From Candidatus Latescibacterota bacterium (GTDB lineage: Bacteria; Latescibacterota; UBA2968): a stretch of DNA of 64,000 nt. Shown here one piece after another: positions 128 to 52,460 of the stretch. How positions within the stretch are numbered: the stretch's first letter is position 1; each line of letters opens with the position of its first letter. The stretch covers positions 434,257 to 498,256 of the forward strand of contig CBDDPH010000002.1 in assembly GCA_965232265.1 (NCBI GenBank). Direction: 5' to 3'. Position numbers and translations under genes: made by a program. The notes under the pieces were generated by a model. It worked only from the letters and a program-made list of their open reading frames with translations, was not told the DNA's origin and did not search any database.

Positions 128-2587
128 ATGAACAATTCTGATCGGCCTATCCGCAAGTTCAATCCGGGGACGTTTCAGTCCGACGAGGAGGTGATTGAGC
201 AGTTTACGGTGAGAAAACACGAACTCAATACGGTGCTTGGAGTACTGCGCGGGAATATCGGTTCACTGTCGTGTCAACACGTTCTGGTGGTCGCGCCTCG
301 GGGTCGGGGAAAGACGATGTTGCTCGCGCGCGTCTCGGCGGAGTTGAATGCTGATGAGGAACTCTCTATGTGTTTTTTATCAGTTCGATTTATGGAAGAA
401 AATCACGAGATATTTGATCTCGCGGATTTTTGGCTCGAGACTTTGTTTTATCTCGCGCGGGAGAGCGTCAGGCAGGATCCTAAGCTCGCACAGGAACTGC
501 GAGAGGCACACGCCGATCTGACTGCTCGCTGGGACGAGGATGCGCTCGCGGATCGCGCCCGTGACACTGTTTTGGATGCGGCGGAACGATTGGGTAAAAA
601 ACTCGTTCTTATGGTGGAAAATTTGCAGGCACTCTGCGGAGGTTTGGATGACGATTTTGGCTGGCAACTGCGCGGCGCGTTGGAGTCAGAGCCTCGGATC
701 GTGTTGCTCGCTACTGCGACGAGTCGCTTTGAGGGGTTGGAAAATGCGGCAGAGCCGTTCTTCGAGTTGTTCCGAATTGTCGATCTGGAATCGCTGAGTA
801 CTGAGGACTGCTGCCGTCTGTGGGAGGTGGTCAGCGGCGATGCGGTGACTGAGCACGAGATCAGGCCGCTCGAGATCCTGACAGGTGGCAACCCCCGCCT
901 TCTCATTATGGTCGCTGAGTTCGCGCAACACCGGTCATTGCGCCAGTTGATGGAGGAACTGGTGACACTGATTGACAAGCATACCGAGTATTTTCGCGGT
1001 TATCTGGAGGCTTTGCCCAAGAGCGAACGCCGCGTGTATCTCGCGTTGATTGATTTTTGGCGACCGTCGAGTACGAGCGAGATCGCGGCACGGGCGCGTA
1101 TGGGGGTTCGGACCGTATCAACGATGCTCGGTCGGCTTGTGAACCGGGGTGCAGTCGTCGTGGAGGGGTCCAGCAGGAAGCGATTGTACGCCGCAGGAGA
1201 ACCTCTTTATAGCATCTATTACAAGCTGCGACGCGAGCGCGACGAGGCGACAGTTATGAGAAGGCTGATCCATTTCATGATGGCGTTCTACGGGATAGGC
1301 GAGTTGTGCCAGATGTCCGGTCGGCCGAGTTTGGAGGCGGCAGAGTCAAAGGTTATTCGCGAGGGGATTGAGCGTGCGCTCGTCGAACCACCGGACGTTG
1401 AGGACAGTTTTTTGCGCGTGGCATGGTCGGCTGTCGAATATATATCGGATAAAGCGACGGCAAATGCGCCATTCACGGCGGAACTGCGTTTAAAAGAGGA
1501 GGTCCAATCGGCGCTCGATGAGAGAGAATTTGAAAGGGTTGTGGAGATTGGTGACCGTTTTATCGCTTCTGGAGGCGTGGATGCATCTCTCATGTCGGAG
1601 TCTCTCGTCGCCTACATATTGCATACAAGGGCGATTGCTTATGAAAAATTGGAGGATTTCCAAGGAGTGGTCGCGGTTTGCGATGAGATGGTTGAGCGTT
1701 TCGACGACGCATCCGACCATACTCTTCTGGCGCGGATGGCCCGCGTATTGATCCACGGGGCAAGAGCGCGATATGAACTTGGGGAGTTGGCGTTGACGGT
1801 GTCTGCGTATGATGAGGTGATTGAGCGTTTTGGGACCAGCGATGCGCCCGATTTCCAGTTCCCGGTCGCTCTGGCGCTGTTAAAAAAGGGAGATTTGCAA
1901 GTTCAACAGAGAGAGTTGGGGCTGGCGGTGTCTGCTTATGAAGAGGTGATTACTCGCTTTGGTACCAGTGATGCACCGGGGATTCAACTTTTGATCGCCT
2001 GGGCGTTGTCCCAAAAGGGAGATTTGCAAGTTCAACAGGGAGAGTTGGCACTGGCAGTATCTGCTTATGAAGAATTGATCGTGCGTTTTGGGGTCAGTGA
2101 TGTGCCAGCAATCCAGGTTCTGGCCGCCTGGGCGTTGTCCCAAAAGGGGGTGATACAAATCGAGGTAGGACGTGTGGAAGAAGCTCTGCTGATAAGTGAA
2201 GAGCTTGAAGGAAGACTCGGTGCTTTGACTCTCAATGAGAAGGTGATGTTTACATGGCGAGTGAGATATGTGCAGGCTTTGGCTCTACAGCTTAAGAAAA
2301 GGCAACAGTTTGCCATGGATATGTTTCGGTCGGCGTATGCTGTGTTCGTGCCAAACGACGAGACGATGATGTACGAGATGCTACAACTCGTGCCCGCTTT
2401 GATCGCAAACGGTGCCTCAGAGCACGATCTTGTCGATATCCTCCTGTCCAGGGAGAAATCCGATGCGCTGGAACCCCTTATTATTGCTTTGCGACAGCGT
2501 ACCGGCGAGGTGGTTCGCGCGCCTGTGCAGGTTCTTGAGGTGGCGCGGGATATCAATAAGCGCATTGAGATGGGAAGCGTGAAGTGA
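128..2587 (+). CDS. STAND-type P-loop NTPase (Arch_ATPase/AAA_16-like N-terminal domain, DUF234-like winged helix, C-terminal TPR-like repeats)
   Basis: Walker A VVAPRGRGKTMLL preceded by FTVRKHELNTVL (Arch_ATPase-like); Walker B-like LVLMVENL; wHTH-like segment ALIDFWRPSSTSEIAARARMGVRTVSTMLGRL; three 41-aa helical repeats at the C-terminal half. Confidence 0.6.
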   Translation: MNNSDRPIRKFNPGTFQSDEEVIEQFTVRKHELNTVLGVLRGNIGSLSCQHVLVVAPRGRGKTMLLARVSAELNADEELSMCFLSVRFMEENHEIFDLADFWLETLFYLARESVRQDPKLAQELREAHADLTARWDEDALADRARDTVLDAAERLGKKLVLMVENLQALCGGLDDDFGWQLRGALESEPRIVLLATATSRFEGLENAAEPFFELFRIVDLESLSTEDCCRLWEVVSGDAVTEHEIRPLEILTGGNPRLLIMVAEFAQHRSLRQLMEELVTLIDKHTEYFRGYLEALPKSERRVYLALIDFWRPSSTSEIAARARMGVRTVSTMLGRLVNRGAVVVEGSSRKRLYAAGEPLYSIYYKLRRERDEATVMRRLIHFMMAFYGIGELCQMSGRPSLEAAESKVIREGIERALVEPPDVEDSFLRVAWSAVEYISDKATANAPFTAELRLKEEVQSALDEREFERVVEIGDRFIASGGVDASLMSESLVAYILHTRAIAYEKLEDFQGVVAVCDEMVERFDDASDHTLLARMARVLIHGARARYELGELALTVSAYDEVIERFGTSDAPDFQFPVALALLKKGDLQVQQRELGLAVSAYEEVITRFGTSDAPGIQLLIAWALSQKGDLQVQQGELALAVSAYEELIVRFGVSDVPAIQVLAAWALSQKGVIQIEVGRVEEALLISEELEGRLGALTLNEKVMFTWRVRYVQALALQLKKRQQFAMDMFRSAYAVFVPNDETMMYEMLQLVPALIANGASEHDLVDILLSREKSDALEPLIIALRQRTGEVVRAPVQVLEVARDINKRIEMGSVK
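1790..2160 (+). repeat. Three tandem ~123-nt near-identical repeats inside the NTPase CDS (41-aa units GELALAVSAYEEVI.RFGTSDAP.IQ.L.AWALSQKGDLQVQQ)
   Basis: Visible in both DNA and translation; units >80% identical. Confidence 0.7.
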
Positions 2588-2650
2588 GAGGGTCTCACAC
2601 GAAGACACAAAGATACAAGACGTGAGGAACAGGTAACACGTTAAAGGCAA

Positions 2651-2695
2651 TCGCCATCGCGGCATGCTTAAAGCCGCGATCCCGAAGGTTTTGAT
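2651..2695 (+). repeat. REP-like intergenic element copy A (conserved module only: TCGCCATCGCGGC-ATGCTTAAA-GCCGCGATCCCGAAGG-TTTTG)
   Basis: 8-bp stem ATCGCGGC/GCCGCGAT with 9-nt loop; same core found at 8.99, 43.17, 46.67 kb. Confidence 0.5.
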
Positions 2696-2712: not shown

Positions 2713-3513
2713 TTACCACACAATTTCGTGTGCGTTGACGACGGGTCCTTCGAGGCAGACGCAGCGATAGCGGCGGTCTTCGGTGGGATAGGTTTTGTAT
2801 TCGACCACGCATCCGACACAGGCACCGAAACCGCAGGCCATGTGGTTTTCGAGAGAGGCATAGCAGGGGGTGTCTAATTCGGCGGCGATGTGGGCGACGC
2901 GGGCCATCATGGGATGGGGACCGCAGGTGAGGATGGTGGTGTGGTTTGGAAGGGTGTGTTCGGCAATGAGTTCTGTGACAAATCCTCGGTGTCCCACGCT
3001 GCCGTCATCGGTGGCGATGTGGAGGGGTAGGCCGGCGGGTAAGAGCGCGGACATGTCGGGCAGGCGTGCGGCATTTGCTGCGCCCATGAGGTAGATCATA
3101 TCGGGACGGCGGTCGGAGTGTTCCCACGCTAAAAATGCGAGGGGAACGAGGCCGACGCCACCGGCGACGAGGAGGATGCGTTTGGTTTTTGGGGGGGCAA
3201 AAGGGTTGCCCAGTGGTCCGCTGACGTCAAATTGGTCGCCGCAGTGGGCAGCAGATAGACGCTCGGTGCCGGGGCCGATGACGTCGTAGATGAGGTTGAG
3301 CCAGCCGGCTTTGCGATCTGCGCGCAATACGCTGAAGGGGCGGCGGAGATATGGCGATAGACCAGGATCAGTCAGGATTTGCAGGAATTGCGCCGGGCGC
3401 GAGGCGGCTGCGAGCCTGGGCGCGTGCAGGCGCATGAGATATACGCCCTGTGCGATGGGATCATTTTTTTTGACGATGGCAGGTTCGGAGATGAAGTTTG
3501 GGATTTCGGGCAT
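2713..3513 (-). CDS. pyrK: Dihydroorotate dehydrogenase electron-transfer subunit PyrK (FAD/NAD-binding ferredoxin-reductase fold with C-terminal 2Fe-2S Cys cluster)
   Basis: RPFSV flavin motif, GGVGLVPL NAD-binding motif, C-terminal CGFGACVGC...C...C cluster; located after carB. Confidence 0.75.
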   Translation of the reverse strand: MPEIPNFISEPAIVKKNDPIAQGVYLMRLHAPRLAAASRPAQFLQILTDPGLSPYLRRPFSVLRADRKAGWLNLIYDVIGPGTERLSAAHCGDQFDVSGPLGNPFAPPKTKRILLVAGGVGLVPLAFLAWEHSDRRPDMIYLMGAANAARLPDMSALLPAGLPLHIATDDGSVGHRGFVTELIAEHTLPNHTTILTCGPHPMMARVAHIAAELDTPCYASLENHMACGFGACVGCVVEYKTYPTEDRRYRCVCLEGPVVNAHEIVW

Positions 3514-5645: not shown

Positions 5646-7457
5646 TTAAGAAGTGTGAAAGTCCTGGAGTGAGCGAATGCGAATTGTGCTGTTGTTTTTG
5701 AGCGATTGGATGCCGGCAACAGCGGCGGCGGCTCCCGATAAGGTGGTTGTGTAGGGCAGGCCGTATTGTATGGCTGCTTTGCGAATTTCGGGGTCGGCGG
5801 CCTGGGATTGCTCTCCTGCAGGGGTGTTGATCATGAGAGAGATTTCGCCGTTTTTGATGGCGTCGAGGATGTTTGGGCGTCCTTCCTGGATTTTGAAGAT
5901 CCGATTACAGGCTATGTTGTGGCTTTTGAGAAAGGCGCAGGTTCCCCCTGTGGCAATGAGGCGAAAGTTCATGTCGGATAGTTGTTGGGCAATGGGTACA
6001 AGTCCTTCTTTGTCGCGGTCGTTGACGCTTAAAAATACGGTTCCCTCCTGGGGCAAGCGCACGCCTGCGCCGAGTTGCGCTTTTTGGAAGCTGAGGCCAA
6101 AGTCGGTGTCTATGCCCATGACTTCGCCGGTGGATTTCATTTCGGGACCGAGGACGGTGTCAACGCCGGGAAATTTGTTGAAGGGCAAGACGGCTTCTTT
6201 GACGGCAATGTGGCTGATGGGTACTTCCCGGGTAAAGCCCTGTTCTGCAAGTGTGCGCCCGACCATTGCGCGGGCAGCGACTTTGGCCAGGGGCACGCCA
6301 ATGGCTTTGCTGACAAAGGGTACGGTGCGCGATGCTCTGGGGTTGACTTCGATAATAAATACGTCTTCGCCTTGAATGGCAAACTGAATGTTCATGAGGC
6401 CCACCACGTTGAGTGCTCTGGCCAGGGCGCGCGTGTGGCTTCGCAGTTCATTGAGGTTGGTGTCGGAGATTTTATAAGGGGGTAAGACGCAGGCGCTGTC
6501 GCCAGAGTGTACGCCCGCGCTTTCGATGTGTTGCATGATGCCGCCGATGACGACTGCTGTTGGATCTGCTACGGCATCGACGTCAAATTCGTGTGCGTCT
6601 TCTAAAAATCGGTCGATGAGGATGGGGCGTTCAGGAGAGGCTTCTATGGCATTGTGCATATAGGCGATGAGGGCTTCGCGGTCATATACGATTGCCATTG
6701 CGCGGCCCCCGAGTACATAAGAGGGGCGCACGAGAACTGGATATCCGATTTGTTCGGCTATGGCGATTGCTTCGTCGGTGCTTATTGCGGTGCCGTTTTC
6801 GGGTTGTCGTATGCCCAGTTCTTTGATGAGTGCGCCAAAGCGCTTGCGGTCTTCGGCCAGGTCAATGGCGTCGGGCGATGTGCCGGCGATGTTGAGGCCC
6901 CCGCGTTCGAGGTCGCGCGCGAGGTTGAGCGGTGTTTGTCCGCCGAATTGAACAATGACGCCGTCGGGTTGTTCAACATCGGCGATGCTGAGTACGTCTT
7001 CGGCAGTGAGCGGTTCAAAGTAGAGTTTGTCGGATGTGTCGTAGTCGGTGGAGACGGTTTCGGGGTTGGAGTTGACCATGATGGTCTCAAATCCGTCTTC
7101 TTTGAGGGCATAGGAGGCGTGGCAACAACAATAGTCGAATTCGATGCCCTGTCCAATGCGATTGGGTCCGCCGCCCAGGATCATGATTTTTTGGCGATCG
7201 GATCGGATGGCTTCGTTATCTGTTTCATAGGTCGAATAGTGATACGGCGTATAGGCTTCAAATTCGGCGGCGCAGGTATCTACGGTTTTGAATACGGGCG
7301 CGATGCCGAGTTCTTTTCGCAAGGCGCGAACAGCCCATTCGTCACTTTGCCACAGGTGTGCCAGTTGGCGGTCGGAGAAGCCATGTTGTTTGGCTTTGAG
7401 CAGGTCTGCGCGCGTGATGCGCGATTTTAAGTCGTTGAGTGTGTGCTGTTTTGTCAT
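5646..7457 (-). CDS. carB: Carbamoyl-phosphate synthase large subunit, C-terminal half (second ATP-grasp domain plus MGS-like domain), encoded as a separate CDS
   Basis: Starts inside the oligomerisation domain (VFKTVDTCAAEFEAYTPYHYSTYE); second ATP-grasp and MGS-like domain motifs; ATG 2 nt after the stop of the N-half CDS. Confidence 0.85.
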   Translation of the reverse strand: MTKQHTLNDLKSRITRADLLKAKQHGFSDRQLAHLWQSDEWAVRALRKELGIAPVFKTVDTCAAEFEAYTPYHYSTYETDNEAIRSDRQKIMILGGGPNRIGQGIEFDYCCCHASYALKEDGFETIMVNSNPETVSTDYDTSDKLYFEPLTAEDVLSIADVEQPDGVIVQFGGQTPLNLARDLERGGLNIAGTSPDAIDLAEDRKRFGALIKELGIRQPENGTAISTDEAIAIAEQIGYPVLVRPSYVLGGRAMAIVYDREALIAYMHNAIEASPERPILIDRFLEDAHEFDVDAVADPTAVVIGGIMQHIESAGVHSGDSACVLPPYKISDTNLNELRSHTRALARALNVVGLMNIQFAIQGEDVFIIEVNPRASRTVPFVSKAIGVPLAKVAARAMVGRTLAEQGFTREVPISHIAVKEAVLPFNKFPGVDTVLGPEMKSTGEVMGIDTDFGLSFQKAQLGAGVRLPQEGTVFLSVNDRDKEGLVPIAQQLSDMNFRLIATGGTCAFLKSHNIACNRIFKIQEGRPNILDAIKNGEISLMINTPAGEQSQAADPEIRKAAIQYGLPYTTTLSGAAAAVAGIQSLKNNSTIRIRSLQDFHTS

Positions 7458-7459: not shown

Positions 7460-8908
7460 TTAGTCCATCAGGGCGGCGAGTTCTTTTTCTACTTCGACGA
7501 GTTGTCGCATGTTGTCGAGAAACCAGGGGTCAATTTTGGTGGCGTCAAAAATTTCCTGTACGGATAGTCCCGCGTCATAAGCCGTTTTGAGATAGGCCAA
7601 TCGCTGCGAGTTGGGTTCGCGCAGGCCGCGTTCGAGGGCTTCTCGCGAGAGGGTGTTGGGATGGATGTCTTTGCCGTCGGCACCAAATCCCGCACGCCCG
7701 ATTTCGAGCGAGCGCAAGCCTTTTTGCAGTGCTTCTTTAAACGTGCGACCTATGGCCATGGTTTCACCTACAGATTTCATTTGTGTGCCCAACAGATCAG
7801 CGGTTTGGGGAAATTTCTCAAATGTCCAGCGCGGGATTTTGATGACGCAATAGTCGATGGTGGGTTCAAATGAGGCGGGTGTTTCGCGCGTGATGTCGTT
7901 TTGTATTTCGTCCAGGGTGTATCCAATGGCGAGTTTGGCGGCTATTTTGGCGATAGGAAAGCCCGTGGCTTTTGAGGCGAGTGCGGAACTGCGGGAGACG
8001 CGGGGGTTCATTTCTATGACGACGCGCCGGCCCGTGTTGGGGTCAACTGCAAACTGGATATTGGAGCCGCCGGTTTCCACGCCGATTTCGCGGATGCAGG
8101 CGATGGCGTCATCGCGCATTTCCTGATATTCTTTGTCTGTGAGCGTTTGCGCGGGTGCCACGGTGATGGAGTCACCCGTGTGTACGCCCATGGGGTCGAA
8201 GTTTTCTATGGAGCAGATGATGACGACATTGTCGTTTTGGTCACGCATGACTTCGAGCTCGAATTCTTTCCAGCCGATGATGGATTCTTCTACGAGGATC
8301 TCAGAGGTGGGCGATAGGCTGAGTCCGTGTGCAGCAGCTTGTCTAAATTCTTCGATATTGTACGCGGTGCCAGCGCCTGTGCCGCCCAGGGTGTAAGACG
8401 GGCGGATGATGGCGGGAAATCCGATTTCAACCGTGATGTCGCATGCTTCTTTGAGGGTGTAGGCAAATCGGCCTTTGGGGAAGTCGAGGCCGATTTTATT
8501 CATGGCTTTTTGGAAGGCTTCGCGGTTTTCGGCTTTTTCTATGGCGTGTGGTTTTGCACCGATCATTTCGACGTCAAATTTTTCGAGTGTGCCCTGTTCG
8601 TGCAGGGCCATGGCAGTGTTGAGGCCCGTTTGTCCGCCCAGGGTTGGGAGGATGGCATCTGGGCGTTCTTTTTCGATGATGGCTGCACACACTTCGGGGG
8701 TAACGGGTTCGACATAAGTCTGGTCAGCCATTTCGGGGTCGGTCATGATGGTGGCGGGGTTGCTGTTGACCAGCACGACTTCGTATCCCTCTTCTTTGAG
8801 GGCTTTGCAGGCTTGTGTGCCCGAGTAGTCAAATTCACAGGCTTGTCCGATGACGATGGGACCAGAGCCGATGAGCATTATTTTTTTGAGGTCGGTTTGC
8901 TTGGGCAT
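7460..8908 (-). CDS. carB: Carbamoyl-phosphate synthase large subunit, N-terminal half (first ATP-grasp domain plus start of oligomerisation domain)
   Basis: [57 protein letters not shown] is a canonical CarB N-terminus; ends ...[11 protein letters not shown] then TAA. Confidence 0.85.
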
Positions 8909-8950: not shown

Positions 8951-9045
8951 CTGTAGGGGACGGTCCCCGTATAGAAGCACTACGGGGCAGGCTCCCGTCA
9001 TTGCGGCATGCTTAAAGCCGCAATCCAGTGGTTTTTGTCATTACT
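8951..9045 (+). repeat. REP-like mosaic element copy B (CTGTAGGGGACGGT-[CCCCGTA-loop-TACGGGG]-...GTCATTGCGGC-ATGCTTAAA-GCCGCAATCCAGTGG-TTTTTG); overlaps the 3' end of nnr
   Basis: Same architecture as copies at 43.14 and 46.6 kb; stem carries a compensatory T/A change (ATTGCGGC/GCCGCAAT). Confidence 0.5.
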
Positions 9046-10587
9046 GGCGTCGTTGCGTATTTGGTGAATGGCGGCGGCAAAGTTTTCGATGATGTCACTG
9101 GCGATGAGGCTTATTTGTCCTGTTTTTTTCGCTGCAATATCAGCGGCGAGGCCGTGGAGATAGACGGCTGTGCAGGCGGCGTCTGAGGGGTTGAGTCCCT
9201 GACCGATCAGGGCGGCGAGAAGGCCCGTAAGTACGTCTCCTGTGCCGCCGGTTGCCATGCCCGGGTTCCCGGTTGGGTTGATGTGCGCCCGGCCTTCTGG
9301 CGTTGCGACGATGGTCGGCGCGCCTTTCAGGACTGTGGTGGCTCCGACATCGGTGGCGAATTCTGTGGCACGTGCTATGGGGTCGCGCTGCATTTCGGAG
9401 ATGCTGTACCCGGTCAGGCGCGCAAATTCCCCGATGTGCGGGGTGAGTACCAGGGGTGTTTTGCAGGCGCGGACCGCGGCGAGGTCGCCAGCGAGTGCGT
9501 TGAGGGCGTCGGCGTCGATGACTGCGGGAGATCTCAGGTCACGCACGAGGCGACGGATGAGTTCGACGGTTTCTCGATGGGTCCCCAAACCCGGACCTAT
9601 TGCGATACTGTCGGCTGTGCAACAGGCGCGTTGTATTTCGCACCGGGCGCGCAGGGACAGGCATCTGACTTTTTTTATTTCGGGTAGGGGTTGGGTCATG
9701 GCTTCGGTGACTTTGGTTTCGAGTATGTCGTTGAGGCTTTTGGGTACGCCGAGTGTGACGAGGCCCGCGCCTCCTTTGAGTGCCGCGTTTGCCGAGAGTG
9801 CTGCCGCGCCTGTAAGTCCCACGGACCCGGCGAGAATATACACTCTGCCGCAATCCCCTTTGTGGACGTCGGGTTCCCGGTGGGGAAGCAGACGAGCGCA
9901 ACGGCGGTTGTCGATGAGGGAGGTGCGAATGCGTTCGGCCTCAATTGCCGAGGGGGGAATCCCGATGTCTATGAGGTGCAAGTTGCCGCACCGGGCGCGA
10001 CCAGGGTAGAAGAAGTGTCCAATGCGCGGCCGTGCAAATGTGACGGTGCGTGTTGCGGTTGCACAGGCCCCTTCGATTTCGCCCGTGTCGGCGTTGAGTC
10101 CAGAGGGTATATCTACGGCGACTATGGGGCATCTGGCGCGGGTGAGAGCGTTTATGAGGTCGGCGTATATGCCGCGGGGAGGCCCCTGGATACCCGTGCC
10201 CAATAGCGCGTCAACGGCAATGTCGGCATTGGCGAGTGCATGTTGTACTGTTGTGATGTGGTCGACCGGCTGCACGATGTCTGGGGGCAGTCGGTCGAGG
10301 TTGGTTTTTGCATCGCCTGTTATTTCCCGGGCGGATGTGGCTGTGAATACCTGGACTTTTGCCCTGCTTTGGGCAGCTTGTCTGGCGATGACAAAGCCGT
10401 CGCCGCCGTTGTTGCCTTTGCCACAGAGGATGACGATGTGCCGGTTTTGGAAGTCGCCCAACAGGTTTTCTACGACCCGGGTTACGCCTTGCCCGGCGGC
10501 TTCCATGAGTTCAATGCTCGGCACACCACTGTCAACTGCCCGACGGTCAATGGATGCCATCTGGGAGCCGGTGATAAGCTCAATCAT
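8998..10587 (-). CDS. nnr: Bifunctional NAD(P)H-hydrate repair enzyme Nnr (YjeF-N epimerase plus YjeF-C ADP-dependent dehydratase)
   Basis: N-terminal ILCGKGNNGGDGFVIAR (YjeF-N) and C-terminal carbohydrate-kinase-like GGTGDVLTG motif. Confidence 0.8.
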   Translation of the reverse strand: MIELITGSQMASIDRRAVDSGVPSIELMEAAGQGVTRVVENLLGDFQNRHIVILCGKGNNGGDGFVIARQAAQSRAKVQVFTATSAREITGDAKTNLDRLPPDIVQPVDHITTVQHALANADIAVDALLGTGIQGPPRGIYADLINALTRARCPIVAVDIPSGLNADTGEIEGACATATRTVTFARPRIGHFFYPGRARCGNLHLIDIGIPPSAIEAERIRTSLIDNRRCARLLPHREPDVHKGDCGRVYILAGSVGLTGAAALSANAALKGGAGLVTLGVPKSLNDILETKVTEAMTQPLPEIKKVRCLSLRARCEIQRACCTADSIAIGPGLGTHRETVELIRRLVRDLRSPAVIDADALNALAGDLAAVRACKTPLVLTPHIGEFARLTGYSISEMQRDPIARATEFATDVGATTVLKGAPTIVATPEGRAHINPTGNPGMATGGTGDVLTGLLAALIGQGLNPSDAACTAVYLHGLAADIAAKKTGQISLIASDIIENFAAAIHQIRNDASNDKNHWIAALSMPQ

Positions 10588-13925: not shown

Positions 13926-14005
13926 GTAAAAATATTCTGGATCGCAGACGGCACGGGGGCCGTGCCCTACGATGATTTTGTAGGAGCGCTGTGGTCGCTC
14001 GCAAT

Positions 14006-26986: not shown

Positions 26987-27144
26987 CGTGACCCCTCCCC
27001 CGGCCCCTCCCAGATGCGGGGAGGGGAGACCTGGTTGCCCCCTTCCTCATAGGCACAGGCGAAGCCTACAACGAAGCGGTAGGTGTACAACTGGCCGCCA
27101 GGCCAGTTCACCGAGTAACGGAGTTAGGGGGGTAGGTCCCGTTT

Positions 27145-30572: not shown

Positions 30573-30619
30573 AAAAATGTACAAACTATGGTCATCGCAG
30601 AAACTGCGATAGCCGTTCC

Positions 30620-40695: not shown

Positions 40696-43095
40696 TTAAG
40701 CAATGCGTCTAATTTCTCCACGACCAATGGTATGCGCGCCGTCTTCTCCTGCGATTTTTACTTCTGCATGTTCGGAACTGGAGACGTAAAGTGCGCCGTC
40801 GGCGATGGCGTCTATCCGCACGTCGCCTTCTATGTTCAGTATTTGGGCAGCGCGGAGCAGACAGGCAGATTCCCCGCCGATGGGGATATGATATAGTATG
40901 CGGTTTCCCTGTGTTTCGAGGATGGCACCGGGAAAGACAGGGAGTTGTTCGGTTCTGTTTGCGGTAAAAGTACATATCTGATGCGCGGTGCCAAAGTTTG
41001 CGGCAGCGAGATATCCTTCGGCTATAAGGCCAACGCTGTTTTCCAATGCGGTCAGTATCTCGAAGGGGGTATCGGGTGTGTCGGCGGCGGTTTGTTCGGG
41101 AATTAACAGGGCTGTTAAGCGGCCCGCTTCTTCGCCCGCACGAAGGGGTTTTTCGCCCGATAGTCGAGATAGTGTGAGGTCGTCGGCTATGGCGCGGTAG
41201 GGGTTGAAATAGTGCCGGTTGTGATAGATTGTGTCGCCAGTTCCGGTAAAGTGTATGCCCAGGCGGTTGTCTATGTTGAGATAGGGGAGATGCCCCAGGT
41301 TGTCGATTATGTCATCGGATTCTGATTCGCCGTGCCAGCCCGCGTACCGGGTTTTGCCGTCGGGGCGATATAGCACGCGCTCGCCGCGGCAGTTGGGCGC
41401 CAGGTGTGAGAAGTGTTCGTTGGTGATGCGCAAGAATCCCTGGTTCAGTTCTTCCAGTACGAGGTCTTCCCGGGCAGTGAATTTTTCAAATGATAGGACG
41501 CGGCCGTCTGGCAGGCTGGCAAAGAGTACGTGCTGACGCAGGGATTCCTGGCAGCGGTCTATGACGAGGGCGGCGGCAAATCTGTCGTCGTATTCGGCAA
41601 CGCGTATGGTTTTGAGGCGGTGGCTGTCGGGGCGGTTTTGTACGACGGGTGTGCCGAGCCATGTGTCTGAACAGGGGGCGACGGTGTAGATGCCTTCCCG
41701 CGTGAGGGGCAGGGCCATGATCGAGTTGCGCCAGGCAAATGAATTTTGTCCGTGCGGGTGTCTGTGGTGTACAAATCCCGCGTGGGGAAAGTGACGCACG
41801 CCCGAGAGACGAGATTCCATTTCTGCGGTGGGGGAAGGCGATGGACCTGGTCCAAAGAGGCGATGGAGGAGATACAGACCGGCGGCACCCGAGATCGAGA
41901 CTTCACGCATGATCATGGGGTCTTGCTGGTCGTGTGCTTTCTGGGCGAGGTCGGGGTCGTACATCCGGCCCCCATTTCCGAGCTGGCGGCGTTCGGCGTG
42001 TTCCAGGCCCAGACGTTCCATGGCCGCGGCGTCCGGGTCGTCGAAATATACGGCGGCAATGGCGTGTGCGGCTATGGTTGCGAATATATTTAGATAATGC
42101 CAGTCCATGCCCTGAACAGCCTGGGCATAGCCGCCCCCATCGGTTAAGGCTTTGAGGTTTTCGTACACGCGCCGTTTGTTCCAGAAGAGTTCTGGGGGTA
42201 GTTCGCGTCCCCAGAGCTGGTACAGGCAGCCCACACTCATGAGGGGAGAGAGGCCCGAGGCCGTGTAGCTGGGGTGGACCATGCCGTGGTTTTCCGCGAG
42301 GTAGTCGGGCAGGACTGTGAATATTTTTGCGGTTAGTGTACGTGCGGTTTCGCTACCTACGAGGCCGAGGTCTTTGGCGTCTTGTGGCGCGGCGCATGTG
42401 GAGAACATCCATCTGCGGGCGGTTGCTTCCCAGGCTGCGGCGTCCGCGTGTTCGGATAAGAAGAGGAAGCACGAGGTGAGTCCGTGAGAGGTCCAGGCGT
42501 TTTCTTCCATTTGGGTGTCTGTATAGACGCCGCTTTTGGGTGCCATGTCTCCGAATCGCGCGGCGTAGTCTGCGTGTACGCGGGCGACCATCATATAGGT
42601 TTCTCGATCGATCCATTCTCGCAATAGCAGACATACACGCGCGAGGCCAGCGACGGTGCTGCCGCACTGGCTTTCGCGGAAGAAGCCTTTGCCCCGTTCG
42701 CCCCATTTGGTGCCGCAGTTTTCCGAGCGGCCCAGTCCCTCTGAGGGACGCACACAGTCTTTGGGTCCGGAGTCGTGGGTGTAACACAGGTATCGCACGC
42801 CTTTGATCGCCATTTCCCGCAGGGTGTCACGGGATACGCCCGTGGATGTCTCGTCGTATTCTGGAGACGTACTGGCGTAGGCAAAGGTTTCAGCACAACT
42901 GATGGTTTCGATTCCATACCAGTGACATCCGCCAAAGAAATGCCCGCAGTTGGGGCGGTCGGGCCAGTCGGCAAAGTACGCGATGCCCGTTGGTATCCAC
43001 TGTTCGATCATCCGCAGATAACGGCGACTCATTTCGTTTTCCGTGTTGGGAAGGTGTGGATGCTGCAGGTCTGTGATGTCGGTCATGCGTACCAT
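40696..43095 (-). CDS. Heparinase II/III-like (alpha/alpha-toroid) polysaccharide-modifying enzyme, no signal peptide
   Basis: Size and composition similar to the neighbouring 1003-aa heparinase II/III-like protein; call is tentative. Confidence 0.4.
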   Translation of the reverse strand: MVRMTDITDLQHPHLPNTENEMSRRYLRMIEQWIPTGIAYFADWPDRPNCGHFFGGCHWYGIETISCAETFAYASTSPEYDETSTGVSRDTLREMAIKGVRYLCYTHDSGPKDCVRPSEGLGRSENCGTKWGERGKGFFRESQCGSTVAGLARVCLLLREWIDRETYMMVARVHADYAARFGDMAPKSGVYTDTQMEENAWTSHGLTSCFLFLSEHADAAAWEATARRWMFSTCAAPQDAKDLGLVGSETARTLTAKIFTVLPDYLAENHGMVHPSYTASGLSPLMSVGCLYQLWGRELPPELFWNKRRVYENLKALTDGGGYAQAVQGMDWHYLNIFATIAAHAIAAVYFDDPDAAAMERLGLEHAERRQLGNGGRMYDPDLAQKAHDQQDPMIMREVSISGAAGLYLLHRLFGPGPSPSPTAEMESRLSGVRHFPHAGFVHHRHPHGQNSFAWRNSIMALPLTREGIYTVAPCSDTWLGTPVVQNRPDSHRLKTIRVAEYDDRFAAALVIDRCQESLRQHVLFASLPDGRVLSFEKFTAREDLVLEELNQGFLRITNEHFSHLAPNCRGERVLYRPDGKTRYAGWHGESESDDIIDNLGHLPYLNIDNRLGIHFTGTGDTIYHNRHYFNPYRAIADDLTLSRLSGEKPLRAGEEAGRLTALLIPEQTAADTPDTPFEILTALENSVGLIAEGYLAAANFGTAHQICTFTANRTEQLPVFPGAILETQGNRILYHIPIGGESACLLRAAQILNIEGDVRIDAIADGALYVSSSEHAEVKIAGEDGAHTIGRGEIRRIA

Positions 43096-43136
43096 TTTGT
43101 TCTCCTTTCAAGGAAGCGATCAGCAGTCAGCGATTA

Positions 43137-43224
43137 GCTGTAGGGGACGGTCCCTGTGCCGTCCCGCCAGTCATCGCGGCATGATGTTGAGCCGCGATCC
43201 AGAAGGGTTTTTTAATTACTGACG
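43137..43224 (+). repeat. REP-like mosaic element copy C (CTGTAGGGGACGG-TCCCTGTG-CCGTCCC-GCCAGTCATCGCGGC-ATGATGTTGA-GCCGCGATCCAGAAGGG-TTTTTTAATTACTGACG)
   Basis: Most complete copy; lies between the two heparinase-like genes. Confidence 0.5.
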
Positions 43225-43230
43225 TTGTGC

Positions 43231-46200
43231 CTATGTGCTGGTCGCTGTATTCCATTCATAATCAACAGTTGCGCGCACGGTTTCGATCTCGCCATTGGCA
43301 ATGCGAAGGTGTACGGCGTTTTGTATTTCGCACGGGTCGCCTGTGGAAATATCATAAACAAAGCCTTTTGCGTAATCCTCGCGGGATACAAGGCCGCGGA
43401 TGAAGGAGGTGTCACCCACTTCTACGCGGACTTTATTTTTTTCTGAAGATACGATGTCGGAGATGGTGTAACAGGCGTCCCGAATGCCGTCGTTTAAGAC
43501 CCGGATCTGTGTGCCGATGAGGCGTTTGTCCGGGGGCAGGTCGCCTTCTATTTCAATCCAGGCAGGGCCGGTTTCTTCGCGGTGAAAGTCCGTTACGGTG
43601 CCGCGGTGAATTGGGGCGTTGATCCGCAGGGTTCCAGAGGTGGTGTTTACCCGGGTCCCGCCCAACAGAAAGATGGATGTTTGTCCGTTGCCCCGGGATA
43701 TGATTGCAAATCGCCCCGCGGCTGTGATACCTTCTCCCAGGTCAAATACGCGGTTCGGGTCGTCAGATGACAGGATGTGATCTGTCCGACCTGTATGGGT
43801 TGTTATTTTTACAGCCACTGCTGTTAAGTCGCGTTCGTCCAGTCCGAGATCAATACGGGTGGCGTCTGCTATATGAGGCTGGTTCTCGCGGTAAGGTTCT
43901 ATGACGGAGGCGAAGAGGCTTTGCTCTGAGCCGGTGTTGTGCAAGAGTACATAGCGGATGCGCCGGGGGTTGCCGGGTTTGTTTTGCGGGGGATCGCCCC
44001 ATGCCAGAGCCGCGTTTTCTGCGTTGGATAATACGCGGTAGCGCAGGTGCAGGGGGGTGTCACCGTGCTGGGTTTTCCAGGTATCTGCGAGTTTCCAGTC
44101 TGCCCACCATCCAGCCGCGGGTTTCTCTGCGCGGTGAACGCCGTAGAGGTAGGCAAAGCCACTGCCAAGGTAGCGTCCATCAGGTGGTCCGTCGTAGTGC
44201 GTGCCAAAGGGGATGGTTTCGCCCGCATAAGTTCCTTTTTTCTGTGGGGTGAGGTCGATGCCCTGCGTGGTCACGTCGCCATCTCCGGCGTGGAAGCTCA
44301 TGATGTGGTCGTTTCCGCCATCCACGCGGAAGAAGTCGATGAGGTAAGATTCGGTGGGCGATACGTCGATCATTGCGAGGGTGCGCCGATAGTCGCGTGT
44401 GTTGGAATAGATTTCGGGGGATGCGATTTCGACGACGCCTATGCCCCGCGAGGTGGCAAAATATTGGCAGTGCCCGATCCAGTTCACTTCTTGCTGCTGC
44501 TGATTTACCATGACGGTGTTGTGCGAGATGGTGTTTGTGGTCCAGCCCGCTCGCTTGGGCCATTTGCTGTCGGCGTATTCGGGGTATCCCAGGTCGGGCA
44601 ATACGTCCATTCCGCGGTAGTACATTCCAAAGTTCAACCGATCTTTGTGACCGTGTCCACCGTTGCGCCCGTAATACAGCCAGGCCGCCCGCTGGTCGGT
44701 TCCTTCTCCGTGTCGGAATACGGTGAGTCCATAGCCGTTCAGGTTTTCGCTTTTGAGTTCTAATTCGCCGTGTTGCTTTGCGATGTCGAGGACGGTTTTC
44801 TGGATTGCTTCGGGGTCGGCGTCGAAGATGGAGGTGTGCAGGCCGTCGGTGCTGTTTCCGTTGAGTTTGTACGCGAGGCGCGCGAGGTCGGGGTCGCCGA
44901 GCCGGACATAAGCGCTGATGATTGTTTGGAGTTCTACGCTTACCATGCCTTCGCCTCCGGTGTTGCCAGTGTCGCCGATGTGGAGGGTGTAGCGGTCCAG
45001 TGTGGTGAGGCGATAGGGTGCGCTGTACATGCGCTTGAGGCGGGGATAGTCGCGGTATAGATCAAAGTCCCGGTATTTGCGACACCGGTCCAGTACCCAG
45101 GCACAGCGGGCAAATGCGTTCATCCAGCCAAAACAATAGCCGGGCGCTGCTTCGTTGCCAATGCCGTCTCGATCTACTTCTCCGATCAGGGTCGCGGGGA
45201 TGTGTCCCCCACCAGTGCCTCGGGATTCTCCGGGTTCAAAGAGCCAGTCGAGTGCTTCGGGCGTTTCTCGTGGGTTGTCCAGTACTGCCGCCGCAGTGGC
45301 CATGGCAGTTTGGGTCATGCCTTCGTTGCCGCGGATGCGCCGGTCTCGACAGGAGCGTATAAATTCTCGGAGGAGTCCGCGTTCGATGTTTTCGCGGATG
45401 TGGGCGATGCTCGATTTGGGCTGTTTGATCTGCCATTTTTCCGCTTGTGCGGATAGGAATCGGACGAGTTCATTGTCGTCTTCTATGCCTTCGGAGATCA
45501 TGTCGCAGGATAGGGATAGGGTTTCTGCCATGCCGTTTTCCCATATACAGCCTTTGATGCGGCCCATGCCCGTGCCGCCGTGGGAGTTGTAGAGGCCCAG
45601 ATCCGAGTAGGGGGTTAAGTCCATGTCGGGATAGACGTCTGCGATGCGGTCGAGGATGACGGCGCCTTTGTGGGCATAAGTGGTGTCGCCCGTATAGAGA
45701 TACGCTTTGCCCAGGGCGAGTGCCGCTGCTGGCAAGTCGGTCCATGTGCAATAATGGCTGTAGTAGGCGATGAACCACCAGCGATTTCCCGATTCGTCGA
45801 TCCAGCCCATGCCGTCATCTACTGCATAGTGTGGGGCATTGGCGTTTTCGGCGTTGTATAGCAGGGTTTCATCGGCGAGGCTGCGTTCGAAGATTCCACC
45901 GGATCCCAGGCCGCTTTTGTAAAATGCCTCAAAGTCGTTTTTGGGCCAGATTTCTCCGCACGACGGACATTCGAGTTTATAGGGGCGTTCCAGCGATACT
46001 TTCCATGGGTAGTTGCCGAATGCATAGACGTCTCGACCGCATTCGGGACAGCCGAGGTCGGGGTTGACGTGGATGCCGCGGGGAATGGATTGTCCGGTGA
46101 TCATATCCCAGATTTCTCCATCACTTCGCGCGACCCAAGGCGCGCATGTTTCGATTGCGGCATCTCGCTCGGCTTTTGCCCATGCATAGCGTTGGATGTT

Positions 46201-46242
46201 TCGCCGGGCATTGCTTATTTCTTTAGGTGTGTACAGTCCCAT
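43231..46242 (-). CDS. Heparinase II/III-family protein with N-terminal CxxC...CxxC zinc-ribbon insert, no signal peptide
   Basis: CPECG...CPSCG near N-terminus; WLYYGRNGGHGHKDRLNFGMYYRGMDVLPDLGYPEY resembles the Hepar_II_III C-terminal domain. Confidence 0.55.
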   Translation of the reverse strand: MGLYTPKEISNARRNIQRYAWAKAERDAAIETCAPWVARSDGEIWDMITGQSIPRGIHVNPDLGCPECGRDVYAFGNYPWKVSLERPYKLECPSCGEIWPKNDFEAFYKSGLGSGGIFERSLADETLLYNAENANAPHYAVDDGMGWIDESGNRWWFIAYYSHYCTWTDLPAAALALGKAYLYTGDTTYAHKGAVILDRIADVYPDMDLTPYSDLGLYNSHGGTGMGRIKGCIWENGMAETLSLSCDMISEGIEDDNELVRFLSAQAEKWQIKQPKSSIAHIRENIERGLLREFIRSCRDRRIRGNEGMTQTAMATAAAVLDNPRETPEALDWLFEPGESRGTGGGHIPATLIGEVDRDGIGNEAAPGYCFGWMNAFARCAWVLDRCRKYRDFDLYRDYPRLKRMYSAPYRLTTLDRYTLHIGDTGNTGGEGMVSVELQTIISAYVRLGDPDLARLAYKLNGNSTDGLHTSIFDADPEAIQKTVLDIAKQHGELELKSENLNGYGLTVFRHGEGTDQRAAWLYYGRNGGHGHKDRLNFGMYYRGMDVLPDLGYPEYADSKWPKRAGWTTNTISHNTVMVNQQQQEVNWIGHCQYFATSRGIGVVEIASPEIYSNTRDYRRTLAMIDVSPTESYLIDFFRVDGGNDHIMSFHAGDGDVTTQGIDLTPQKKGTYAGETIPFGTHYDGPPDGRYLGSGFAYLYGVHRAEKPAAGWWADWKLADTWKTQHGDTPLHLRYRVLSNAENAALAWGDPPQNKPGNPRRIRYVLLHNTGSEQSLFASVIEPYRENQPHIADATRIDLGLDERDLTAVAVKITTHTGRTDHILSSDDPNRVFDLGEGITAAGRFAIISRGNGQTSIFLLGGTRVNTTSGTLRINAPIHRGTVTDFHREETGPAWIEIEGDLPPDKRLIGTQIRVLNDGIRDACYTISDIVSSEKNKVRVEVGDTSFIRGLVSREDYAKGFVYDISTGDPCEIQNAVHLRIANGEIETVRATVDYEWNTATST

Positions 46243-46253
46243 CGCGATGCTCC

Positions 46254-46595
46254 TTATGAGGTTTCAAAGGCTTGTGCGAAGATCAAGAAGTCGCCAAATC
46301 CCACTTTTCCGTCCAGGTCCAGGTCAAAGGGGGCGAATACGGTCGCGTATTCACCTACTGTTTTTCCGTAGGCGTTGGCGAATAGGAGAAAGTCTTCAAA
46401 TTCTATTTTTCCATTGCTGTCAAAGTCTGCGCTGCGGGAGGTGCTGGCTTTGGGATAGGCGGCGACTACGCCGTCGATTGCGTTCCCATAGTTTGCGACA
46501 AATGCCCGGTCCATTTCGGGGTAATACATCAGGGGCCAAAATTCCATTTGTGAGCCATATAGAGATGTCTGAATTATATCAACAGCACCTTCCAA
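46254..46595 (-). CDS. Small ORF carrying two dockerin-type (EF-hand-like) calcium-binding repeats
   Basis: DFDSNGKIEFEDFLLFANAYG and DLDLDGKVGFGDFLIFAQAF match the dockerin repeat pattern D.D.(N/D)G.I...DF..F; no signal peptide. Confidence 0.45.
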   Translation of the reverse strand: MEGAVDIIQTSLYGSQMEFWPLMYYPEMDRAFVANYGNAIDGVVAAYPKASTSRSADFDSNGKIEFEDFLLFANAYGKTVGEYATVFAPFDLDLDGKVGFGDFLIFAQAFETS

Positions 46596-46602
46596 ACTGG
46601 AC

Positions 46603-46720
46603 GCCTGCTTAAAGCATGCAGAGCCTGCCCCTGCACGTCTTAAGCAGGGGCGTGACGACAGGAAGAGCCGCCGTCATCGCGGCGTGGTTTTAGCCGCGAT
46701 CCAGAAGGTTTGTTTGTCAT
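46603..46720 (+). repeat. REP-like mosaic element copy D (inverted GCTTAAAGCATGC fragment, GCCCCTGC/GCAGGGGC hairpin, GTCATCGCGGC-GTGGTTTTA-GCCGCGATCCAGAAGG-TTTGTTTGTCATCGC)
   Basis: Conserved 3' module plus different GC-rich 5' hairpin; in divergent promoter region. Confidence 0.45.
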
Positions 46721-46846
46721 CGCAGCTAAATTTTTATGGCTTATCGCCGCTATATGTGACTATATTAACGTCGCAAAATTACATGACATATTTCCGAAAA
46801 CAAGAAAAATTGGGCTTGCCTCAAAAGTCCATTCCACAAAAACACC

Positions 46847-48918: not shown

Positions 48919-50184
48919 TCAAGCGTTCTTCAAGGCATTTACCGCTTCGATCAATCGCCGGTCGGCTTTGTAGCGCAATTCTAAGATCGCGTCTATGTCC
49001 GATAGTGCGTTGGACTCGGCCTGCAGACGGCACACATCAATGCGGTCTGACAGGGCATTCATGACCACGTCGAGCAACATCAAATCTGTGACATCGTCAG
49101 CAACCATACACTCATCGGCCAGAACCTTGCGGATCATTTCCAGGGGTTTTTTGAGTGCCTCGGCGTCTGGGATGGATTCTCTATTTCCATTGTTGACCAG
49201 TTCGGGCGACAAGCTGCCGAGAAAGCCTTCGCTGATAAATTGCCGGGTTTTGTTTTCGGTCCACGATTGCGCCAATATTTGTGTCAATCTGCTCGACGGT
49301 TGATCGGGTTTCTTCTCTCGACTGCGATCGCTGCTGCGCTTTGAAGGCCGCTGCTTGTTCTGATTGCTTTGTTCGTTGCGCTGGCGTCCTTTTGGTGGGC
49401 GAGACACATTGCGCGTATTTTCTTTTTTCGGTTCTTCTGTTTTGGGCTTATCCTGCGTGCTCTGAACAGGTGTTTCGGTTCGCGCTTGCGGTTGTGCTTC
49501 TGGCTCCGCAGATGTTTGAACGGTTTTTTCCTCTGTGTTCGCGTCCTGCCGTCGCGTGGGTTGAGCAGGTGCGCTTACACCGGCGTGATCTTCCCAGCCA
49601 ATTGGAGCTGATCGCTTTGTCCGACGTCCCCATTGCATTTCTTCTGGTTGCACATCCTGGGGCGTTTGTGTTTGCGCGGTTTCTGCCTCTTTTCGATTCT
49701 GTTCGGCGGAAGCCTTTGCTTCGACCTTTTCCCTTTCCCTGCGCTGTCTGGATGGTGGCGAGGAGATCACCGTGCGCTCTTCCTGTGTGGCAGGCATTTC
49801 AGCCTTTTTTGCAGGCTTCTTGGCTTGCTGCGCTGGTTCCTTGGCCTGTTTTACAGCCTTTTTTGCAGGCTTCTTGGACGATTGCTTTTTCGATACACGC
49901 GGTGTAGAAGACCTGGTGTTCGTTTTCTTGGCCGGCTTCTTGGCCGGCTTCTTGGCCGTTTTTTTCGTCGCCTGCTTTTTGGCCGGCTTCTTAGCTGATC
50001 GTTTTTTTGTGGCACGCGGTGTAGAAGATCTGGTGTTCGTTTTCTTAGCTGGCTTTTTGGCTGTTTTTTTCGTCGCCTGCTTTTTTGACGGACGTTTTGC
50101 TTTTTTTGCTGTGGATGTCGCGCCTTGTGTTTCCCGAGGTTCTTCAGCCTGTGTTTTCACTTTTGCCATAATTTCCTTTCGCAA
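48919..50184 (-). CDS. Lys/Ala-rich histone-H1-like (AKKPAKK repeat) basic protein with acidic middle region and conserved helical C-terminal domain
   Basis: N-terminal 150 aa almost entirely K/A/T/P (KKTAKKPAKK repeats) including a duplicated 39-aa unit; C-terminal ~120 aa non-repetitive. Confidence 0.5.
   Translation of the reverse strand: MRKEIMAKVKTQAEEPRETQGATSTAKKAKRPSKKQATKKTAKKPAKKTNTRSSTPRATKKRSAKKPAKKQATKKTAKKPAKKPAKKTNTRSSTPRVSKKQSSKKPAKKAVKQAKEPAQQAKKPAKKAEMPATQEERTVISSPPSRQRREREKVEAKASAEQNRKEAETAQTQTPQDVQPEEMQWGRRTKRSAPIGWEDHAGVSAPAQPTRRQDANTEEKTVQTSAEPEAQPQARTETPVQSTQDKPKTEEPKKENTRNVSRPPKGRQRNEQSNQNKQRPSKRSSDRSREKKPDQPSSRLTQILAQSWTENKTRQFISEGFLGSLSPELVNNGNRESIPDAEALKKPLEMIRKVLADECMVADDVTDLMLLDVVMNALSDRIDVCRLQAESNALSDIDAILELRYKADRRLIEAVNALKNA
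49890..50125 (-). repeat. Two tandem 117-nt repeats (~90% identical) encoding TNTRSSTPR.(S/T)KK...AKKPAKK units
   Basis: Direct DNA repeat acgcggtgtagaaga(c/t)ctggtgttcgttttctt(g/a)gc... Confidence 0.6.
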
Positions 50185-50253: not shown

Positions 50254-50281
50254 ACAAAAAAAGGGCTGACCAACGGCCAGC
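50254..50281 (-). terminator. Rho-independent terminator of groES-groEL (GGGCTGGCC-GTT-GGTCAGCCC followed by U7)
   Basis: Read on minus strand immediately after the groEL stop. Confidence 0.6.
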
Positions 50282-50317
50282 CCTTTGTGGAGATTGTGCA
50301 TATTTTGACAGTCCGAT

Positions 50318-52426: not shown

Positions 52427-52460
52427 CTGTAGGGGCGAGGCATGCCTCGCCCGTCATTGC
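52427..52460 (+). repeat. Partial REP-like element copy E (CTGTAG-GGGCGAGGCATGCCTCGCCC-GTCATTGC), lacking the second hairpin
   Basis: Shares the CTGTAGGGG leader and GTCATTGC joint; perfect 10-bp palindrome. Confidence 0.35.

Follow-up and report, generated by a model that had tools for sequence, protein, structure and literature searches.

Repeat copies and genes of the window

The stretch of DNA analysed here, hereafter the window, comprises 64,000 nucleotides of a Candidatus Latescibacterota bacterium (contig CBDDPH010000002.1, positions 434,257 to 498,256), and carries at five places short, mosaic, hairpin-forming elements to which we refer as copies A to E. A sequence-only reading of the window had placed five such copies on its plus strand and proposed a mosaic family of the repetitive extragenic palindromic (REP) / bacterial interspersed mosaic element (BIME) type; all five are present at those positions, four full and one truncated, and the proposed type is borne out by an anatomy that combines ‘CGTC’ and ‘GTAG’ REPs. 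The genes of the window lie mostly on the minus strand, as also remarked in that reading (53 kb, against 6.9 kb on the plus strand), and there include a split carB, Nnr/YjeF, a heparinase-like protein, groES/groEL, a rhodanese and SecA. Copies B, C and E sit between co-directional minus-strand genes, and are hence antisense to both of their neighbours; copy A is found between convergent genes (128..2587, plus strand; 2713..3513, minus strand) and copy D between divergent ones.

Searching the window with the core pattern CATCGCGGC-N9-GCCGCGATCC, at up to three mismatches, gave five matches against 0.10 expected from shuffled sequence. These correspond to three elements, two of them being matched on the opposite strand as well because the core is palindromic, with copy C escaping the pattern because its loop is 10 nt long. 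A covariance model (R1, from alignment A1), built from 100 copies of the conserved module, returned exactly four full copies at 57.7–65.9 bits, everything else in the window falling below 15 bits.

Working through copy C from its 5′ end, we see a GTAG-type REP (43140..43166, plus strand), made up of GTAG, GGGACGG, the loop TCCCTGTG and CCGTCCC, followed directly by the CGTC-type REP that constitutes the conserved module (43167..43212, plus strand; R1 61.3 bits); here the head reads AGTC, the stem is formed by 43173-43180 and 43191-43198 around the 10-nt loop, and the tail is CCAGAAGGGTTTT. Copy B has the same layout, but its GTAG-type REP (CTGTAGGGGACGG...; 8951..8993, plus strand) contains a nested insert of ~28 nt, CCCCGTATAGAAGCACTACGGGGCAGGCT, that occupies the loop and 3′ arm. 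The CGTC-type REP that follows (8994..9038, plus strand; R1 60.4 bits) has a CGTC head, the tail CCAGTGG and the T:A stem subtype, ATTGCGGC/GCCGCAAT, just as had been described for a stem altered on both arms. This REP overlaps the Nnr/YjeF open reading frame (ORF; 8998..10587, minus strand), covering its final 14 codons plus stop—the TGA stop lying in the reverse complement of GTCA in the REP head (8998-9040)—and ORFs that run into these repeats, such as the Nnr gene at 8998, thus carry element-encoded C-termini.

Copy A is a CGTC-type REP alone (2650..2694, plus strand; R1 57.7 bits), with head CGCC and tail CCCGAAGG. Copy D pairs two CGTC REPs: an inverted one of a second type (46597..46657, minus strand), which on its own strand reads CGTC, ACGCC..TGC, ATGCTTTAA, GCAGGCGT, CCAG and is split by a nested, AGCCTG-tagged hairpin (46622..46651, plus strand; GCCCCTGC, loop ACGTCTTAA, GCAGGGGC), and one of the main type (46670..46714, plus strand; R1 65.9 bits) with head CGTC, a 9-nt loop and tail CCAGAAGGTTTG, after which a degenerate second head, GTCATCGCAG, is found at 46716. 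Copy E (52427..52460, plus strand) has a GTAG-type REP, CTGTAG with GGGCGAGGCA/TGCCTCGCCC, and then a truncated CGTC head; its conserved module is reduced to the first 9 nt, CGTCATTGC.

In the three copies that possess a GTAG REP, the GTAG (at 8953, 43140 and 52429) forms the foot of an imperfect palindrome, and the motif CTGTAGGGG, said to begin three copies, indeed occurs exactly three times in the window (8951, 43138 and 52427), on the plus strand and always as the head of a hairpin; the four variable hairpins that had been listed are likewise present and fold as described. A possible sixth copy at 30588-30612 fared less well: it is a true 7-bp hairpin, but goes undetected by R1 even at E = 10, and its form is unique within ~1 Mb of related sequence, leaving its membership unsupported. 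A hybrid copy had been overlooked (13927..13979, minus strand; R1 14.5 bits, E = 0.017), in which a GTAG hairpin, GTAGGGCACGGCCCCCGTGCC, is bracketed by the two termini of the conserved module, TCATCG...GCGATCCAGAA.

The window contains other hairpins as well. A perfect palindrome with GTAG/CTAC feet, CAGTAGAGGCGGGTTTCAAACCCGCCTCTACTG, lies between two minus-strand genes at 23468-23500, and the orthologous site in a related genome (L044; we number sampled loci in this manner throughout) carries a CGTC REP instead. Two further intergenic hairpins are found at 27004-27026 and 27089-27108; AACTGGCCGCCAGGCCAGTT is a member of a hairpin family that L009, L058 and L111 also contain, there immediately 5′ of the conserved module.

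Anatomy of the CGTC module and its fusion with GTAG REPs

Aligned on their stems, 184 oriented copies from 112 loci define a module of ~43 nt, namely (C/T)GTC, ATCGCGGC, a loop of 9–10 nt, GCCGCGAT and CCAGAAGGTTTT. Information content reaches 1.9–2.0 bits at GTC, along the 8-bp stem and at CCAG, and 0.8–1.5 bits through AAGGTTTT, then drops to approximately zero at 3–4 nt upstream and ~12 nt downstream. This drop outside ~43 nt, together with flanks that are unrelated between copies, indicates a discrete unit; the possibility that we were looking at conserved 3′ ends of paralogous genes, named beforehand as the observation that would count against independent elements, is not what the alignment reveals. 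Of the 184 copies, 171 are located outside long ORFs. CGTC forms the head of 122 copies and TGTC that of 59, with something else in 3 (the search pattern having required GTC); the stem, ATCGCGGC/GCCGCGAT, starts AT and is paired in 99.9% of cells; the loop, with consensus ATGNTTTWA, or AKGNTKTWA in a more degenerate rendering, has 9 nt in 143 copies, the remaining 41 having a 10-nt loop. Among the window copies, CGTC heads are confined to B and D. When R1 was run on the related loci it gave 200 matches in 786 kb.

CGTC-tagged REPs have been defined by an unpaired CGTC or TGTC head (CCTC being allowed), a stem of 8–9 bp that starts A, T and an unpaired CCA tail; they have loops of 4–5 nt, with exceptions, are mostly arranged as head-to-head dimers and have no dedicated transposase (PMC3733652). 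The module agrees in its head, in its stem, in its tail (the conserved CCAG fitting the unpaired CCA), in its high and mainly intergenic copy number and in having no adjacent transposase, but departs in the length of its loop and in dimer predominance, with 11 head-to-head heterodimers among the 184 copies; those remaining are singletons or head-to-tail. On sequence grounds, we place the conserved module among CGTC-tagged REPs of the Neisseria dRS3/NTS type, albeit with a longer conserved loop. Members of the superfamily such as Neisseria dRS3/NTS and Rickettsia RPE-4/-6 share with it the CGTC/TGTC head, an 8-bp stem begun by A-T and T-A pairs and the CCA tail, as well as hundreds of mostly intergenic copies, second-type head-to-head dimers, mosaics and no adjacent transposase (PMC3733652); Neisseria NTS (dRS3), CGTCATTCCCGCG..CGCGGGAATCYRG, follows the same head/tail logic (PMC11893778). 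The module differs in its 9–10 nt conserved loop (versus 4–5 nt), its longer tail, CCAGAAGGTTTT, its mostly singleton or head-to-tail arrangement, its Latescibacterota host and an orientation that follows GC skew (see below), the terms ‘leading strand’ and ‘lagging’ being absent from PMC3733652.

Head-to-tail copies can build tandem arrays in which the linker is repeated too: L008:3496-3895 (period 71 nt), L057:2664-2832 (62 nt) and L034:304-429 (81 nt). We considered a CRISPR-like array for the 71-nt repeats of L008, but rule this out as the ‘spacers’ are themselves repeated.

The second CGTC type shares its head, loop and tail with the main type, four of the eight stem pairs being changed with compensation (ACGCCTGC/GCAGGCGT). 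It underlies a recurrent upstream module, CTGGACGCCTGC-TTAAAGCAT-GCAGGCGTGACG, whose opposite strand reads CGTC, ACGCCTGC, ATGCTTTAA, GCAGGCGT, CCAG, and in its uninterrupted form in the related loci stands head-to-head with the main module in 11 of 12 cases, i.e. as a BIME-like heterodimer. Copy D is a heterodimer of this kind, its inverted partner split by AGCCTG-GCCCCTGC...GCAGGGGC; the same interrupted form is also seen in L019 and L061.

Within the main type the sole variable stem pair is pair 3: of 145 distinct copies, 127 have C:G at this position and 18 have T:A, with zero single-sided intermediates. Six of 44 orthologous pairs, representing at least three sites, differ at this position and always on both sides; copy B is among them, being T:A in the window and C:G in its orthologues L033 and L026. 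A switch from C:G to T:A amounts to two CpG transitions, and the T:A subtype is often linked to the tail CCAGTGG. The double change in copy B had been taken as a sign of selection on structure; this stands insofar as the paired changes maintain the hairpin, but concerns one stem position, not a richly covarying helix. Judged by its base pairing, the second CGTC type, with four compensated pairs, argues more strongly that it is the hairpin which is maintained.

GTAG REPs of several types adjoin the CGTC head at a near-fixed junction, with CCC directly followed by GTC or in the form CCCG-NNN-GTC, and larger composites recur at non-orthologous loci. The composite of copy E, for example, is found at non-orthologous loci with a complete conserved module; similar loci that we had considered as orthologues of site E proved to be non-orthologous copies of this one composite repeat. 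The 27–28 nt insert of copy B recurs in module loops (at least seven matches, 72–73 nt long; displayed in sequence at L001:5970-6042), and short hairpin inserts nest in the loops of both GTAG and CGTC REPs.

The GTAG REPs can be tied to a transposase. Probing the sampled loci with Y1 transposase sequences gave two matches, the first of which, L001 4260-4844, is a Y1_Tnp domain protein (PF01797, 41.7 bits) with the motifs YDYS..GYYFVTICT, HVHGII and YIRDNP. Its best NCBIfam match is the REP-associated tyrosine transposase (RAYT) family NF047646, at 58.6 bits against a cut-off of 80, a shortfall explained by the splitting of the match. The DNA 5′ of this gene contains TGTAGGGGACGGTCCCTGTGCCGTCCCG at least seven times, with five copies arranged in tandem, and one more copy lies 3′; window copy C carries exactly this REP. 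The second match is a RAYT in L109, which has GTAGGGGCGAAAAA..TTTCGCCCC on its flanks. The Joint Genome Institute (JGI) uses the name RayT for homologues from the protein collection, and four more RAYT loci are bordered by GTAG-type hairpins or their remnants, these being full GTAG REPs in L141, L142 and L144 and a looser GTAGGGACAGG hairpin in L143. With RAYT genes flanked by matching REPs, the CTGTAG hairpins are bona fide REPtron-type REPs; the related loci contain 91 hairpins with a GTAG foot. No RAYT lies within the 64-kb window itself, the REPtron arrangement being found in sister genomes.

GTAG REPs, BIMEs, REPINs and REPtrons described elsewhere (PMC3333891, PMC3116915, PMC6006769) similarly combine a 5′ GTAG with a GC-rich imperfect palindrome; in common with the Latescibacterota, such systems comprise several REP types, each flanking its own RAYT, form tandem arrays and vary in presence at individual sites. 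The Latescibacterota GTAG REPs differ in being mostly co-oriented singlets fused to a CGTC REP, as opposed to inverted doublets, and the RAYT genes differ in having an in-frame REP after the HUH motif. The RAYT genes of this clade carry, right after that motif, an in-frame GTAG REP or REP-derived repeats (L001:4512-4600; L109, ~3190-3260; L141:4253; L142:4295), with GPCAVPK, for instance, repeated four times, and it is because of this that their Pfam and NCBIfam matches are split in two. Adjacent to the RAYT of L001 is a BFN_dom ‘bifunctional nuclease’ gene with a UVR motif (L001:4841-5446), the start codon of which overlaps the RAYT stop codon; it may be an operon partner of the RAYT.

Distribution, turnover and orientation

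Scanning one genome per species (185,579 species) with the module pattern matched at least 113 stretches. Of the 113 genome stretches among the matches listed, 111 belong to Latescibacterota, from 13 metagenome-assembled genome assemblies; the other two are chance matches within GC-rich coding regions. A metagenome collection added 27 stretches, of which 25 are true copies (24 from one metagenome project) and 2 chance coding matches. In these searches the repeat family is restricted to one group of uncultured Latescibacterota. The window is not identical to any sampled genome, orthologous loci being 88–92% identical. As to novelty, the sequence-only reading held that the family had not been named. 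This does not apply to its building blocks, given that CGTC- and GTAG-tagged REP superfamilies (PMC3733652), RAYT/REPtrons (PMC3333891) and NTS/Ssn (PMC11893778) are all published; it does apply to the Latescibacterota family, a literature search on Latescibacteria with RAYT giving no relevant paper and no account of this family being found. What we describe is thus a new family within two known REP superfamilies, in a phylum for which we found no earlier description.

A comparison of orthologous sites indicates that the elements come and go between close relatives. Three species retain the CGTC REP of site C, whilst the GTAG REP of this site is missing from L051, occurs in the window and, in L068, contains a 28-nt nested insert. 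Site B likewise has a CGTC REP in three species, with L038 lacking the module, and the GTAG REP is uninterrupted in the orthologue L033. The block 46258-46726, which contains copy D, is missing at the orthologous loci L051 and L068; a 113-aa EF-hand ORF and element D together make up this ~465-nt block (46254-46726), missing in both. Across 44 orthologous pairs, the loop and tail of the module are 86% and 96% identical respectively, as compared with 48–62% for the adjoining 20 nt and 92% for the distant, mostly coding flanks.

Relative to the nearest long ORFs, 49 module copies are co-oriented with both neighbours, 46 are opposite to both, 26 lie between convergent genes and another 26 between divergent ones; the copies show no polarity with respect to transcription. 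There is, by contrast, a clear relationship with local GC skew: the top strand of the module coincides with the G-rich strand in 165 of 184 copies, and with the elements themselves masked, skew and orientation agree at 96 of 109 loci (p = 8e-17), or 73 of 79 where |skew| > 0.1. Orientation across loci correlates with skew at r = 0.77 and with gene strand at r = -0.04; GTAG REPs also agree with the skew in 76 of 91 cases. In complete chromosomes the skew is organised in large domains, and the elements flip along with the domains. Local GC skew is very strong (|0.2–0.3| per 8 kb) across the window and L001-L113, and uncorrelated with gene orientation; within the window, 88% of the coding length lies on the C-rich strand. 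By the usual convention, the G-rich strand is the leading-strand sequence and hence the lagging-strand template. An orientation that follows skew independently of genes argues that these are strand-polar DNA elements, rather than terminators or small RNAs.

Several further features of the window were noted. The large subunit of carbamoyl-phosphate synthase is encoded by two adjacent genes, 7460..8908 and 5646..7457 (window 5646-8908). Three tandem repeats of 129 nt, 67–76% identical, are found at 1784-2170 within a gene for an 819-aa STAND-ATPase/TPR protein. At 49795-50091, short tandem repeats (CTTCTTGGCCGG and relatives) lie within a 421-aa ORF (48919..50184, minus strand) that has no Pfam match, and on the coding strand would give a lysine/alanine/proline-rich repeat.

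A replication-linked reading and its competitors

We consider it somewhat probable, at roughly 60%, that the window samples a clade-specific, BIME-like mosaic of two REP superfamilies that acts and spreads as DNA on the template of the lagging strand. Shown directly are the anatomy of the elements, their copy number, their confinement to one clade, the link between GTAG modules and RAYT, differences in presence or absence between species and the orientation rule. In mechanistic terms, the repeats would act and spread as DNA and not as RNA: at the replication fork, the top strand would fold into a hairpin whilst exposed as single-stranded template of the lagging strand, and would be cut and rejoined there by an enzyme specific for both structure and sequence. 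For the GTAG REPs this enzyme would be RAYT; for the CGTC REP, the likeliest candidates would be a single-strand nuclease of the Ssn-like GIY-YIG kind or RAYT working in trans. Processing at the fork would leave all copies oriented alike with respect to replication, preferential insertion of GTAG REPs just 5′ of the CGTC head would generate the fixed-junction composites, and effects on transcripts, the hairpin forming in RNA of either strand, would be secondary. That both classes of REP are oriented with replication and not with transcription argues for action as single-stranded DNA at the fork.

There is a precedent in the IS200/IS605 elements (IS608, ISDra2), which excise and insert on the lagging-strand template, and whose hairpin ends are read as single-stranded DNA by an HUH enzyme with a replication-linked orientation bias (PMC3333891, PMC6006769). 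The repeats described here are unlike these elements in being non-coding and 25–45 nt long, with no internal transposase and with no target tetranucleotide or clean junction recovered. The specific combination, in which CGTC REPs are processed as single-stranded hairpins of the lagging template and RAYT-mobilised GTAG REPs insert at the CGTC head, we put forward tentatively, and regard as rather less probable than the broader reading that contains it.

A number of observations weigh against this account. Loci were sampled with the exact module pattern, so that copy numbers and taxon range are lower bounds biased towards conserved copies, and the direction of replication is taken from GC skew alone. 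The CGTC REP is at most a putative mobile unit: 13 filled/empty orthologous pairs differ by whole blocks of 70–150 nt, and neither an insertion of just 43 nt nor a duplicated target was seen in them. The same pairs, showing block replacements without a clean junction, led us to reject a miniature inverted-repeat transposable element with terminal inverted repeats and target-site duplication. No transposase is found between the inverted module pairs of L054, L083 and L077 (sulfatase, PhyH, RbsD and Rieske genes occupying these places), nor is any of the six RAYT loci flanked by the CGTC module, all having GTAG-type hairpins only. A search for a GIY-YIG ORF, using jackhmmer with a YhbQ sequence and a motif regular expression, found none in ~0.97 Mb of sampled loci, equivalent to ~1% of the genomes concerned. 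Finally, the CpG transitions at stem pair 3 and their linkage to a particular tail make conversion between subfamilies as likely as independent compensation.

The strongest competitor, which overlaps our preferred reading and adds a named partner and function, holds that an Ssn-type GIY-YIG nuclease specific for single-stranded DNA recognises the module, much as SsnA recognises the Neisseria NTS, and that the module serves to control recombination or the uptake of single-stranded DNA and not as a transposon end; we judge this possible, if on balance unlikely. The module shares the NTS architecture of a CGTC head, an AT-started stem and a C-Y-R-G tail (CGTC-AT...AT-C(Y)(R)G), and the positions that matter to SsnA—binding depends critically on the C directly following the palindrome, and cleavage on the three nt that precede it (PMC11893778)—correspond to invariant positions of the module, the first tail C and GTC, at 1.9–2.0 bits. 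Genomes rich in Ssn-related motifs are, moreover, enriched in symbionts (PMC11893778), expansion in host-associated bacteria being a feature that the module shares with these motifs, and a nuclease partner would suit CGTC REPs that have no transposase either in the literature or here. Conversely, no GIY-YIG ORF is seen in ~1 Mb around the elements, whereas ssn genes are usually flanked by their own motif, and no ssn-like gene was found near the copies in the sampled loci. By a hand check, the module also misses the published SRM pattern, HGTCWYN(0-2)YYVSBRHN(0-5)WNVSBRGN(0-2)RNCYNB, which the stem ATCGCGGC, differing in composition, and the loop of 9–10 nt (as opposed to no more than 5) do not fit. 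A top strand cut by a nuclease whilst exposed on the lagging-strand template would, in addition, seem costly to the cell.

Should the module instead be a host-selected polar chromosome signal, a hairpin that is read on a single replication strand (for instance in priming, fork processing, segregation or recombination) and owes its persistence to selection and not to spread by an enzyme, this would accord with the strong strand polarity with GC skew, the conserved loop, the retention at orthologous sites and a core that, unlike the neighbouring intergenic DNA, is conserved between species about as well as coding sequence. All of these are seen, but we think this reading improbable: presence of the module is patchy between close species, tandem arrays with periods of 62–81 nt and frequent nested insertions occur, and the module clearly belongs to a repeat superfamily scattered across phyla. 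Known polar signals such as Chi and KOPS are 8-mers and not 43-nt hairpins.

A role at the level of RNA, be it as intrinsic terminator, 3′-end stabiliser or small RNA, draws on the stability of the hairpins, the composites having DNA-fold z-scores of -3.3 to -3.8, on a T-rich tail, an intergenic location with copy A 64 nt 3′ of a plus-strand gene, and the effect of REPs elsewhere on mRNA stability (PMC3733652), yet as the primary function is very unlikely, in that orientation is symmetric with respect to genes, 26 copies lie between divergent genes, four of the five window copies are antisense to or upstream of their neighbours, the T-run begins 8 nt past the stem beneath a 9–10 nt loop and a terminator scan does not flag the stem, whilst canonical terminators of another design are found on the coding strand at 14007-14040 and 50260-50286 (both minus). 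Those two terminators follow a cold-shock-like gene and groEL respectively, each with a GC stem running directly into its T-run. An Rfam search recovered only three tRNAs in the window, with nothing at E <= 1 in 43000-47000, and the suggestion that the elements might be small RNAs or mark transcript 3′ ends is, in light of the gene-symmetric orientation, the 8-nt gap and the lack of an Rfam match, one that we do not retain. For annotation, we advise against labelling these hairpins as terminators or small RNAs.

REPs are among the most abundant non-coding elements of bacteria. For CGTC REPs, no transposase was found in 2013 (PMC3733652), and the single-strand nuclease partner reported in 2025 concerns Neisseria alone (PMC11893778). 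This clade of Latescibacterota offers CGTC and GTAG REPs physically fused at a fixed junction, and complete chromosomes of several related species that allow turnover to be tracked site by site. If the tentative mechanism is true, it would provide the first natural mechanistic link between the two REP superfamilies, by way of one enzyme common to both or of a site just 5′ of the CGTC head that is a hot-spot for cleavage.

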